From: Escherichia phage ECO26.1 3-1 | Length of the DNA stretch: 51,807 nt | Strand: one strand, 5' to 3' | Sequence record: OR844578 | Shown: positions 1,022 to 3,259 of the stretch, piece by piece | How positions within the stretch are numbered: the stretch's first letter is position 1 | How the letters are laid out: each line of letters opens with the position of its first letter | Made by a program: the position numbers and the translations under genes | Notes under the pieces: generated by a model | What the model saw: only the letters and a program-made list of their open reading frames with translations | The model's database searches: none | Told to the model about the DNA's origin: nothing

Positions 1022-1510
1022 ATGAATATATTTGAAATGCTTCGTAATGACGAAGGTCTTAGACTGACTTTATACAAAGACACCGAAGGCTTTTGGACGA
1101 TTGGCATAGGCCATTTAGTAACAAAGAACCCGTCTTTAGCCGTAGCTAAAGCTGAACTTGACAGAATGATCGGACGTAAATGCAACGGTACAATTACCCT
1201 TGATGAGGCTGAAAAGCTATTTAATGAAGACGTTGATAAAGCCGTTCGCGGAATCTTGGGTAATGCTAAACTTAAACCGGTGTATGATTCTTTAGATGCA
1301 GTTCGTCGTTGTGCATTGGTCAATATGGTCTTCCAAATGGGTGTAGCAGGCGTCGCCGGTTTTACTAATTCTCTTCGTATGCTTCAACAGAAACGTTGGG
1401 ATGAAGCGGCGGTAAATCTAGCCCAATCTAAATGGTATCGTCAGACACCTAATCGCGCGAAACGTGTAATCTCAACATTTAAAACAGGAACTTGGAAAGC
1501 GTATATATGA
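1022..1510 (+). CDS. e: T4-type lysozyme (endolysin)
   Basis: [32 protein letters not shown]... near-identical to T4 lysozyme, catalytic E11/D20/T26 present; RBS GGGAGG. Confidence 0.95.
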
Positions 1511-1788
1511 AAACATATAGTGAATTTTTATCAGAATCTATTCTTAACGAAGCTACCGACACATTTGCAACTAAGCTAGGTGCAGCTTTGGTTGAAGCTG
1601 AAAGTCTATTAGCACGTATTTCTGAACTTGCTAGTAAGATAGATACTCGCAAATTTGAACGTACCAGCGATATCGCTAAGCTTGAAGCCTTGTTACGTAT
1701 GTGCGATAAACCGGAAGAAATCGCTAAGAACGGCTCGCTGATGAAACAACGTCTTGAAAAATATATTTCAGGCGCTTCAGAAAAATAG
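1507..1788 (+). CDS. internal-protein-like capsid-targeted protein (CTS N-terminus [10 protein letters not shown])
   Basis: ATGA overlap with e stop; N-terminus matches T4 internal-protein capsid targeting sequence with L-x-E prohead protease site. Confidence 0.6.
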
Positions 1789-1789
1789 T

Positions 1790-1819
1790 GTTTACTTCCT
1801 CCAAGGGTTTTGATATTAT
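1790..1819 (+). promoter_or_regulatory. early sigma70-type promoter (GTTTAC-17-ATATTA/TATTAT) inside inverted repeat tcctccaag/cttggagga
   Basis: -35 GTTTAC at 1790-1795, 17-18 bp spacer, -10 at 1813-1819; 9-bp arms flank the -10 and 3' arm carries the denV SD. Confidence 0.55.
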
Positions 1820-1846
1820 ACATTCATCAACTACTTGGAGGAAATT

Positions 1847-2260
1847 ATGACCCGTATCAATTTAACACTTGTTTCTGAACTGACTGACCAACATCTTATG
1901 GCTGAGTATCGTGAATTACCACGCGTATTTGGTGCAGTCCGTAAACATGTTCAAAACGGTAAACGTGTAAAGGATTTTAAAATCTCTCCAACATTTATCT
2001 TAGGCACAGGTCACGTAACATTCTTTTACGACAAACTCGAATTTTTACGTTTACGACAAATCGAGCTAATCGCTGAGTGCTTGAAACGTGGTTTCAAAAT
2101 CAAGGACACGACTGTCCAGGATATTTCCGACATCCCTGCCGAATTTCGTAATAATTACGTCCCGTCCGAAGCGTCCATTGCGATAAGTCAAGCACGCTTA
2201 GATGAAAAAATTGCTCAACGTCCGACTTGGTACAAATACTATGGTAAATCAATTTACTAA
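1847..2260 (+). CDS. denV: endonuclease V, pyrimidine-dimer DNA glycosylase
   Basis: [31 protein letters not shown]... near-identical to T4 endonuclease V; 137 aa. Confidence 0.95.
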
Positions 2261-2272
2261 GGAAAAATTAAA

Positions 2273-2527
2273 ATGTATCAAGAATTTATCATTGAAGCAG
2301 ACACCAAAGGTCCTAAATTTAAAGTTAAAGCTTTCATTGGTGATGCGGAAGACTTTGGCTCATTAAAACGTAATGGGTATTCTTTCTTAGGTGGCGATAG
2401 TAAAGAAATAAACACCTATGCAAAACGTAGTGAAATTGCTTATGTTGTAGCAAGCCCTAAAGTAGATGTTGACGATATTGGATACGATTTTAACAACTTC
2501 GGAATTATTTCTGGCGGTAAAGCTTAA
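2273..2527 (+). CDS. internal protein (IPII/IPIII family), CTS N-terminus MYQEFIIE
   Basis: CTS-like N-terminus; position downstream of denV as T4 ipII; RBS AAGGA. Confidence 0.6.
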   Translation: MYQEFIIEADTKGPKFKVKAFIGDAEDFGSLKRNGYSFLGGDSKEINTYAKRSEIAYVVASPKVDVDDIGYDFNNFGIISGGKA

Positions 2528-2530
2528 ACG

Positions 2531-2560
2531 GTTTACGCTTAAGTATTAATATGGTATAAT
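2531..2560 (+). promoter_or_regulatory. early promoter GTTTAC-17/18-TATAAT
   Basis: -35 GTTTAC 2531-2536; -10 GTATAAT 2554-2560. Confidence 0.5.
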
Positions 2561-2590
2561 TACTCTATCAAAACAAACAAGGAAACAAAA

Positions 2591-2905
2591 ATGAAAACGT
2601 ATAAAGAATTTATTGCAGAATCCGCCAACCAACGCGTTGAAGGTGGTTATATTTGGATTGAACAAGTTGAGCCACCGAGCCGCACTTCTACAGGTAAATG
2701 GAAAATTACTGTTGATGGTCCTGGTGGTAAACGTAGGACTCTTAAAGAAATTAATGGGTACTATGAAGAAGCTCTTTCGGATGCAGGAACTTACATGATG
2801 CAAATCATGATTAAAAACCCTGAAAACCGTTTTGCAGCTAAAGTCTTCCGCCGTATTGGTAATAAACTTTATGATGCATACTCTAAAAACTTCCCTAAAG
2901 AATAA
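2591..2905 (+). CDS. internal protein (IPIII-like), CTS N-terminus MKTYKEFIAE
   Basis: N-terminus matches T4 IP capsid-targeting sequence; 104 aa. Confidence 0.6.
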   Translation: MKTYKEFIAESANQRVEGGYIWIEQVEPPSRTSTGKWKITVDGPGGKRRTLKEINGYYEEALSDAGTYMMQIMIKNPENRFAAKVFRRIGNKLYDAYSKNFPKE

Positions 2906-2930
2906 CATAAATTAAAACAATAGGGACAAA

Positions 2931-3259
2931 ATGAAACATATCAAGAGTTTATCACTGAAGTTACATTATCTGCGGAACAGAAAGCTGCTATCGAAGAAGG
3001 TAAAAATCCCAAAGTAACATATAAAGTAAATAGTAAAGGCGTTTTTGATGGCTTGGTTCAAGACCCTGAATTGAAAAAAGCTCTTTCTAAAACTAATGCG
3101 TACTTTGCTCCTAAATTTAACACAGCCGGTGTACTTATTGGATTGGATGTATTCAACTCTAAAGGTGTTCTATCTAATGCCTTTGGTTATGCCGCTAACA
3201 AAATTACCAAAGCCGCATGGGAATCCAATACCAAACAAGCTCAAAAGCCTAGAGTATAA
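2931..3259 (+). pseudogene. fourth internal-protein paralog with frame disruption right after the ATG
   Basis: ATG 2931 is followed by aaacatatcaagag; CTS frame (K)TYQEFITEV... is open from 2924 to TAA 3259 but is +1 relative to the ATG; one extra A in the A-run would restore MKTYQEFITE. Confidence 0.45.

Follow-up and report, generated by a model that had tools for sequence, protein, structure and literature searches.

The subject of this analysis is an array of four small genes, here named IPa to IPd, in a 51,807-nt stretch of the Escherichia phage ECO26.1 3-1 genome (sequence record OR844578; one strand of 51.8 kb, hereafter the window). The genes lie between the lysozyme gene e and vs.8, in the order e - IPa - denV - IPb - IPc - IPd - vs.8 on the + strand (Table 1). 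The e gene forms the conserved proximal boundary of the locus, and denV, encoding endonuclease V (a pyrimidine-dimer glycosylase), is located inside the array between IPa and IPb. A megablast search with window positions 1400-3450 matched 487 phage records, with Mosigvirus (RB69-like) coliphages at the top (97-98.5% DNA identity); by these matches, the window is that of an RB69-like phage of the genus Mosigvirus. On the T4 minus strand, the order is vs.8 - denV - ipII - ipIII - e - nudE. The matching flanking genes place the window segment at the position of the T4 ipII/ipIII locus and, as judged from this gene order, synteny between e and vs.8 and around denV supports an assignment of IPa to IPd as internal-protein genes. 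Rfam and tRNA scans gave no match.

A shared leader on unrelated bodies

The loose leader motif Y-x-[ED]-F-[LIVM]-x-E was scanned in the six-frame translation of the window, with shuffled sequence as a control. It occurred four times at 1516-2959, all on one strand, and only once more, in an unrelated context, in the rest of the 51.8 kb. Shuffled sequence yielded a mean of 0.115 occurrences per window, against four in 1.45 kb as observed here. The clustering is far above chance, and the core observation is real. The leaders match those of T4 IpII and IpIII, both MKTYQEFIAE, and end in L/I-x-E sites (LSE in IPa, IIE in IPb, IAE in IPc and ITE in IPd, at residues 8-10, or 6-8 in IPb). A complete T4-type leader at the very start of an open reading frame (ORF) is present in IPa and IPc; IPb lacks the first two residues, and the IPd motif is out of frame with its own ATG.

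Behind the leaders, no similarity was detected. With leaders removed, Smith-Waterman comparisons gave z scores of -0.85 to 1.27, and the four family alignments matched each other at hhalign probabilities of at most 0.3%. At the DNA level, the four leader-coding 30-mers of the window are identical at 19-24 of 30 nt, with exact runs of 6-10 nt, and differences fall at synonymous sites while the peptide stays conserved. The low identity and short runs point to exchange through short homology and to conservation of the peptide, not the DNA.

An earlier reading made from the sequence alone (the sequence-only reading) had described four leader-bearing ORFs with L/I-x-E endings and unrelated bodies, with denV embedded, and had taken them for the variable internal-protein locus of T-even phages. 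The fourfold motif stands, but the fourth ORF is not intact and the IPb leader is shortened. The endings, the unrelated bodies (z of at most 1.3) and the place of denV were borne out, the last by its Pfam match with the first and second internal-protein genes on either side. The locus assignment also held, on the basis of T4 synteny, leader type, annotations and the IpII and IpIII homologues in the arrays of relatives. We consider the segment very probably an ipII/ipIII-type internal-protein locus of an RB69-like T-even phage and a variable cassette hotspot between e and vs.8.

Table 1 Features at the locus and its boundaries in the window
Feature	Position	Strand	Description
nudE	529-987	+	start of window
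e	1022-1510	+	lysozyme; Pfam Phage_lysozyme, E 7.5e-14; 81% identical to T4 e
IPa	1507-1788	+	93 aa; 10-residue leader; phrog_3499 'internal head protein', E 2e-46
Early-type promoter	1791-1819	+	TTTACT, 17-nt spacer, TATTAT, with TG; upstream of denV (then IPb)
Hairpin	1796-1843	+	-19.1 kcal/mol; z -3.5; 0/200 shuffles as stable
denV	1847-2260	+	Pfam Pyr_excise, E 3e-14; 91% identical to T4 denV
IPb	2273-2527	+	84 aa; leader MYQEFIIE; phrog_2667 'internal head protein', E 9e-19
Early-type promoter	2532-2560	+	TTTACG, 17-nt spacer, TATAAT, with TG; upstream of IPc
IPc	2591-2905	+	104 aa; leader MKTYKEFIAE; 'Ip10' family
IPd	2931-3259	+	homologue of RB69ORF123c; frameshifted in window
Non-coding element	3262-3431	+	170 nt, IPd to vs.8; distal boundary of array
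vs.8	ATG at 3432	+	followed by vs.7 and vs.6

Existing annotations agree with this assignment for three of the families. IPa is named 'internal head protein' in the RefSeq records of RB69 and phi25-307, as are Tequatrovirus homologues of ~47% identity. Its predicted mature form has ~9.2 kDa and an isoelectric point (pI) of 6.3, and a second L-N-E site is present at residues 13-15. The IPa start overlaps the stop codon of e (ATGA at 1507-1510), so that IPa is probably made together with e. The RB69 counterpart of IPb, RB69p125, is likewise annotated 'internal head protein'. In relatives, the IPb leader reads MKMYQEFI[IA]E from ATG AAA ATG; the window has ATT AAA ATG, and with the upstream ATG changed to ATT (2267-2269), only an eight-residue leader is left ahead of a predicted mature form of ~8.2 kDa and pI 6.4. 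IPc (predicted mature form ~10.8 kDa, pI 9.6) is 72% identical over its full length to 'Ip10' of phage SP18, described there as 'similar to Ip10 of Bacteriophage Pol'. Its matches include phages of Enterobacter, Citrobacter, Cronobacter and Klebsiella, and a homologue search of a large protein database returned only three clusters, too few to be of use. From their sequences, IPa, IPb and IPc look expressible in this genome.

Across the four families, tblastn retrieved 496 (IPa), 217 (IPb), 189 (IPc) and 90 (IPd) phage records from several Tevenvirinae genera, and all four window proteins are 96-100% identical to database entries. Structure prediction gave a mean predicted local distance difference test score of 46.9 for IPc (three-sequence alignment) and 48.8 for IPb (single sequence), too poor for a fold search. 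A strong match of both IPc and IPd to PHROG 3966 ('unknown function'; E 1e-32 to 1e-34) was considered as a sign of homology between them. This reading was rejected because the leaderless bodies are unrelated (hhalign 0.1%, z 1.3); the PHROG is probably a merger of the two families through the common leader.

Apparent disruption and exchange of cassettes

At the start of IPd, the window reads ACAAAATGAAACATATCAAGAG, with the ATG at 2931 followed by AAAC. Where the window has ATGAAAC, all seven relatives inspected at this position (RB69, G53, phi25-307, SSE1, O157 typing phage 3, 308Ecol101PP and SF) have ATGAAAAC(A/G)TATCA. Through this one-base deletion in the A run, the ATG opens a frame of only 28 codons (2931-3017), while the body frame (2933-3259) reads '*GQNETYQEFITE...' (ETYQEFITEV...) and has no start codon before a TTG at 3053. 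Of 38 full-length BLAST matches, 37 have one base more than the window in this stretch; the lone exception, SSE1, has an intact IPd start and a separate intergenic deletion. Repaired, IPd would encode 109 aa with a mature form of ~10.7 kDa and pI 9.7.

If the sequence is correct, IPd appears to be inactivated by the one-base deletion; a single sequencing error would have the same appearance. That the deletion arose in sequencing or assembly at the A run, and that the phage really carries four intact cassettes, has in our estimate an appreciable chance, though one well short of even. The extra A of the seven relatives and the longer stretch in nearly all full-length matches favor such an error, as do the homopolymer context and a body free of further lesions and otherwise 97-100% identical to intact homologues (76 phage records). 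Against it, the run is short (AAA versus AAAA), and lesions are common in this locus in other isolates. Furthermore, in a 50-kb comparison with G53, no other ORF of 70 aa or more has been lost through a frameshift where the DNA is colinear, and the other isolated homopolymer length differences are all intergenic, which argues that the assembly is not generally error-prone. Exact-pattern scans of IMG/VR recovered neither the frameshifted nor the intact IPd start and were uninformative.

The lesions in other isolates are of several kinds. RB69 (locus L001, 1605-3359) has a scrambled IPa leader, MKTYMNFYQNLS, with compensating -1/+1 indels, an IPc truncated C-terminally at 90 aa and an IPd cleavage site that reads FIAA instead of FITE (E-to-A). 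In G53 (locus L002, 1948-2628), denV is fused to IPb by a one-base deletion. Either these genes decayed during growth on laboratory hosts or the records contain old sequencing errors; the frequency of such lesions in individual isolates is as expected of dispensable accessory genes.

Variation in cassette content was assessed in a census of 80 loci around denV homologues from IMG/VR, together with GenBank loci. It contained 100 leader-bearing ORFs spread over 38 loci, with 0-6 in each. All lay on the same strand as denV, to either side of that gene, and none adjoined 44 distant denV homologues (at most 47% identity). Their bodies fell into 15 BLAST families in different combinations, with hhalign probabilities of at most 10% between any two. 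The window families are F4 (IPa, in 10 census loci), F3 (IPb), F1 (IPc) and F5 (IPd). Families F2 and F6 correspond to IpIII and IpII, are 93-95% identical to the T4 proteins and occur as extra cassettes in related Mosigvirus arrays. A recent transfer of IpII and IpIII between genera was considered but is not decisively supported, since these values are no higher than those of denV (91%) and vs.6 (93%).

A comparison of the locus across related phages, proposed with the sequence-only reading, was run and revealed Mosigvirus arrays of differing content. RB69, G53 and SSE1 share the arrangement IPa-denV-IPb-IPc-IPd with the window. O157 typing phage 3 has IPa-denV-IPd, 308Ecol101PP has IPa-denV-IPb-IPd and SF has IPa-denV-IpII-IPd, while phi25-307 carries six cassettes (IPa-denV-IPb-IPc-IpIII-IpII-IPd). 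Several of the junctions could be mapped. The 308Ecol101PP array passes from the promoter, ribosome-binding site and first codons of IPc (ATGAAAACGTAT) straight into IPd codons (CAAGAGTTTATCACT), a deletion whose junction falls within the leader. The SF junction also lies inside the leader codons (ATGAAAACGTAT|CAAGAGTTT in both phages) and joins the IPc upstream cassette, consisting of promoter and leader, to an IpII body. In phi25-307, it is IpIII that is joined to the upstream region and leader start of IPd, and the O157 typing phage 3 junction is at the ribosome-binding site.

In another part of the window (19941-22225), an nrdD-like ORF (605 aa) and an nrdG-like ORF (156 aa) follow an endonuclease VII-like ORF. 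In G53, one of the nearest relatives by DNA, this stretch of ~2.6 kb has no counterpart at that position.

Promoters, hairpins and a conserved non-coding element

Two early-type promoter-like sites lie within the array. The sequence-only reading had assigned early promoters to two of the leader-bearing genes; this fits IPc, whose site is the best promoter match of the region (10/12), while the other site precedes denV. No hairpin beyond chance accompanies the IPc promoter (z 0.13). At denV, the 3' arm of the hairpin contains the Shine-Dalgarno sequence GGAGG (1837-1841) and the -10 element of the promoter lies in the loop. Transcripts initiated at this promoter would lack the 5' hairpin arm, leaving the denV ribosome-binding site unmasked, while in read-through transcripts from e and IPa the site would be masked. 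A hairpin of the same design lies in front of e (994-1021, -16.3 kcal/mol, z -3.3), where near-consensus late-promoter sequences are embedded and the e ribosome-binding site is sequestered.

The canonical late promoter TATAAATA does not occur in the locus, and versions with one mismatch are found only upstream of e or inside genes. Late synthesis, needed for packaging, would consequently depend on read-through from the e promoters or on the early-type promoters. The same arrangement surrounds the T4 genes: a GTTTAC early-type promoter with an inverted repeat, and no TATAAATA, is found at each of ipIII, ipII, denV and ipI, and T4 e has two copies of TATAAATA, so that the layout here is the T4 layout.

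Between IPd and vs.8, we found a conserved non-coding element that shares 77-99% DNA identity with 37 distinct homologous segments (36 T4-like loci) from several Tevenvirinae lineages. It is not conserved as a reading frame; in T4, most of it is annotated as the vs.8 N-terminus, and the window has the same peptide fragments in three different frames. A hand-built model folds 3272-3366 into two stem-loop domains. P1 (3272-3276 with 3323-3327) encloses P2a and P2b, and P3 (3328-3331 with 3363-3366) encloses a near-invariant hairpin, ACCUGUAAUAAGGU, and P5. In this model, 93.3% of cells are paired, against 22-50% with the 3' partners slid; changes on both sides affect 10 of 25 pairs (reached by 1/500 shuffles), and the covariation score is 0.240 versus 0.099 (0/500 shuffles) with support for P1 and P3, values to be read for a structure derived from the same sequences as tested and from few lineages. 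Two A-rich segments, one 5' and one 3', can each pair with the central CCUUU(U/C)CC. Downstream of the fold come a promoter-like site made up of TTTACA (3367-3372) and TAACAT (3390-3395) and, immediately ahead of the vs.8 ATG, a hairpin (3398-3410).

A covariance model detected a single copy of the element in the window (173.5 bits). Every T4-like contig with the 18-nt core matched strongly (114-187 bits), except five more distant ones at 38-44 bits, and only three had a second match: a strong one upstream of IPd in SF (locus L007, 2359-2506), and weak ones in phi25-307 and in one IMG/VR contig. Matches of the core 18-mer in bacterial genomes were at chance level, and the element had no match in Rfam. 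It may be a structured 3' untranslated region or leader RNA, a composite promoter cassette and/or an anchor for swaps of the whole array. Additionally, a 13-codon upstream frame at 3394-3435, MCHGMAQTLREII, ends in ATGA and overlaps the vs.8 start at 3432; its own ATG overlaps the -10-like TAACAT, and in several phages, T4 among them, the same peptide continues in frame into vs.8.

Proposed function and comparison with known systems

We propose that in each cassette a ~10-residue capsid-targeting N-terminus (M-K-T-Y-x-E-F-L/I-x-E) precedes an unrelated body. With T4 as the guide, this leader would steer the protein into the prohead scaffolding core, where the prohead protease gp21 would cut after the Glu of L/I-x-E. 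The mature protein of 8-11 kDa would stay in the head with the DNA and then enter the next host, where it would most likely block a first-line defense; internal proteins are delivered with the DNA and would thus act before any phage gene is expressed. The leading candidate targets would be GmrSD-family type IV restriction enzymes, which attack DNA with sugar-modified cytosine. Cassettes would be gained, lost and swapped by recombination in the short leader and ribosome-binding-site sequence and in the conserved flanks. It is in this sense that we infer packaging, cleavage, injection and an anti-defense role for the four families. The genes for gp21, gp22, gp67 and gp68 lie outside the window and are encoded by RB69, which is 97.6% identical over the locus.

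Published work on T4 and its relatives provides the basis for this proposal. Proteins reach the prohead core by means of the leader, which gp21 then removes and which is enough to bring about the packaging of foreign proteins; the internal proteins of T-even phages form a diverse set with the targeting sequence alone in common (PMC3012670). Ip1, Ip2 and Ip3 are injected inhibitors, each directed against a GmrSD type IV restriction enzyme of its own (PMC12373910), and IPIII is required for infecting ECOR17 (PMC9391042). In Mosigvirus DNA, cytosine occurs in mono- and di-arabinosylated form, and BrxU, an enzyme of the GmrSD family, restricts this DNA (PMC13390438).

Several observations weigh against this proposal. 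IPd is frameshifted, and the IPb leader is down to eight residues. IPa and IPb are near neutral (pI 6.3 and 6.4), in contrast to T4 Ip1-3 (pI 9.0-9.65), which IPc and IPd resemble as basic proteins. The canonical late promoter is absent within the locus. Pfam, NCBIfam and PDB sequence searches with all four proteins returned only chance-level matches, the best being CsgH (E 0.07) and filamin (E 0.1), both for IPc. When the T4 Ip bodies were compared by BLASTP with every body of the census, those of the window showed no similarity to Ip1, Ip2 or Ip3; matches were confined to the IpII and IpIII families, neither of which is in the window. Our literature search found no proteomic or N-terminal sequencing data for the four families. 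Finally, Silas et al. assayed ten further ip genes against active GmrSD variants and observed no new inhibition (PMC12373910), which makes a GmrSD target for the window proteins a guess; the supplements of that study contained no match to MKTY, RB69 or accession numbers for these ten genes.

Some of these points would also fit a different use of the leaders, namely that they are kept mainly as cassettes for recombination and translation initiation and that some of the proteins, especially IPa and IPb, are unpackaged early cytoplasmic accessories. Early-type promoters, the lack of a canonical late one and junctions in leader or ribosome-binding-site DNA are consistent with such a role, as are the pI values of IPa and IPb, an IPb leader that is either functional in its short form or drifted, and the activity of T4 IPIII when made in the cytoplasm without its leader (PMC9391042). 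We nevertheless consider this very improbable. The leader peptide, including L/I-x-E, is conserved over 100 ORFs and 15 families despite synonymous DNA variation, T4 IpII and IpIII, both proven to be in the virion, show the same promoter layout and occur in the same array in related phages, and IPa is translationally coupled to the late gene e.

For packaged and injected proteins, the question of targets can be answered in more than one way. They may act outside type IV restriction, on other defenses, on host nucleoid or transcription factors or in DNA condensation in the head, a possibility that we regard as rather unlikely. The inactive ten ip genes (PMC12373910) and bodies unlike those of Ip1, Ip2 and Ip3 speak for it, together with the finding that internal-protein lysines touch DNA in the T4 head (PMC3012670). 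However, GmrSD enzymes are the targets of all three internal proteins with known targets (PMC12373910), Mosigvirus DNA is cut by an enzyme of this family (PMC13390438), and so extreme a turnover of cassettes is in keeping with an arms race against a diversified family of enzymes.

The role that we consider most likely is thus that of injected, target-specific anti-defense proteins, and specific GmrSD inhibition by the window proteins would be in line with the precedents (PMC12373910, PMC13390438). The full version of this idea, in which IPa to IPd are four new, mutually unrelated injected inhibitors, each for a different host defense that so far lacks a matching inhibitor and with GmrSD/BrxU-type enzymes that recognize arabinosylated cytosine in Mosigvirus DNA as the most plausible targets, is offered tentatively and is doubtful as a whole. 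If it were true, the lesions in laboratory isolates would represent the loss of inhibitors unneeded on the propagation host. The DNA sugar of Mosigvirus is arabinose and not glucose as in T4; as families with no assigned target in a genus with a different DNA sugar, IPa to IPd are reasonable candidates for new inhibitor-enzyme pairs. They may also help to predict which hosts therapeutic Mosigvirus phages can infect.

For the concept of the internal-protein locus, Repoila et al. (1994) is cited as reference 27 of PMC12373910, and a review is given in PMC3012670; the locus, its logic and the gene sequences are already known. With the concept published, RefSeq and Ip10 names in place and near-identical genes in GenBank, the finding is a correct recognition and not a discovery. 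The points added here are that IPd is frameshifted, that the leader of IPb is shortened and where the junctions lie.

Among known systems, the T4 ipII/ipIII locus is the closest counterpart. It shares with the window its position, flanking genes, small proteins, a leader type ending in I-A-E and an early-type GTTTAC promoter in front of cassettes. It differs in that the window bodies have no detectable similarity to IpII or IpIII, in having two cassettes with denV at the array end, where the window has four with denV inside, and in its basic mature proteins, where two predicted window proteins are near neutral. T4 IpI (IPI*) also resembles the window proteins as a small protein with an N-terminal leader, which is removed at I-T-E, and is packaged, injected and dispensable on laboratory hosts (PMC3012670, PMC12373910). 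Its leader is longer (19 residues, MKTFKEFTSTTTPVSTITE), its body is dissimilar and its gene belongs to a second internal-protein locus next to 57B, which lies outside the window.

PeSL cassettes, consisting of an early promoter and a stem-loop, mediate modular shuffling and mark hyperplastic regions in T4-type genomes (PMC2839356, PMC4122927). The locus resembles them in its promoter type (TTTACW-N17-TAYWAT) with a stem-loop and in its place in a hyperplastic region, beside genes that vary among close relatives. The combination that defines them, an early sigma-70-type promoter with a stem-loop by variable genes, is found at 1791-1843. Unlike them, the locus has a clear stem-loop only at the denV promoter, and the junctions mapped here lie in leader codons or the ribosome-binding site, not in the promoter motif. 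Lastly, SP18 Ip10 has the same leader and the same position by denV as IPc, in a phage of a different genus, Gaprivervirus.

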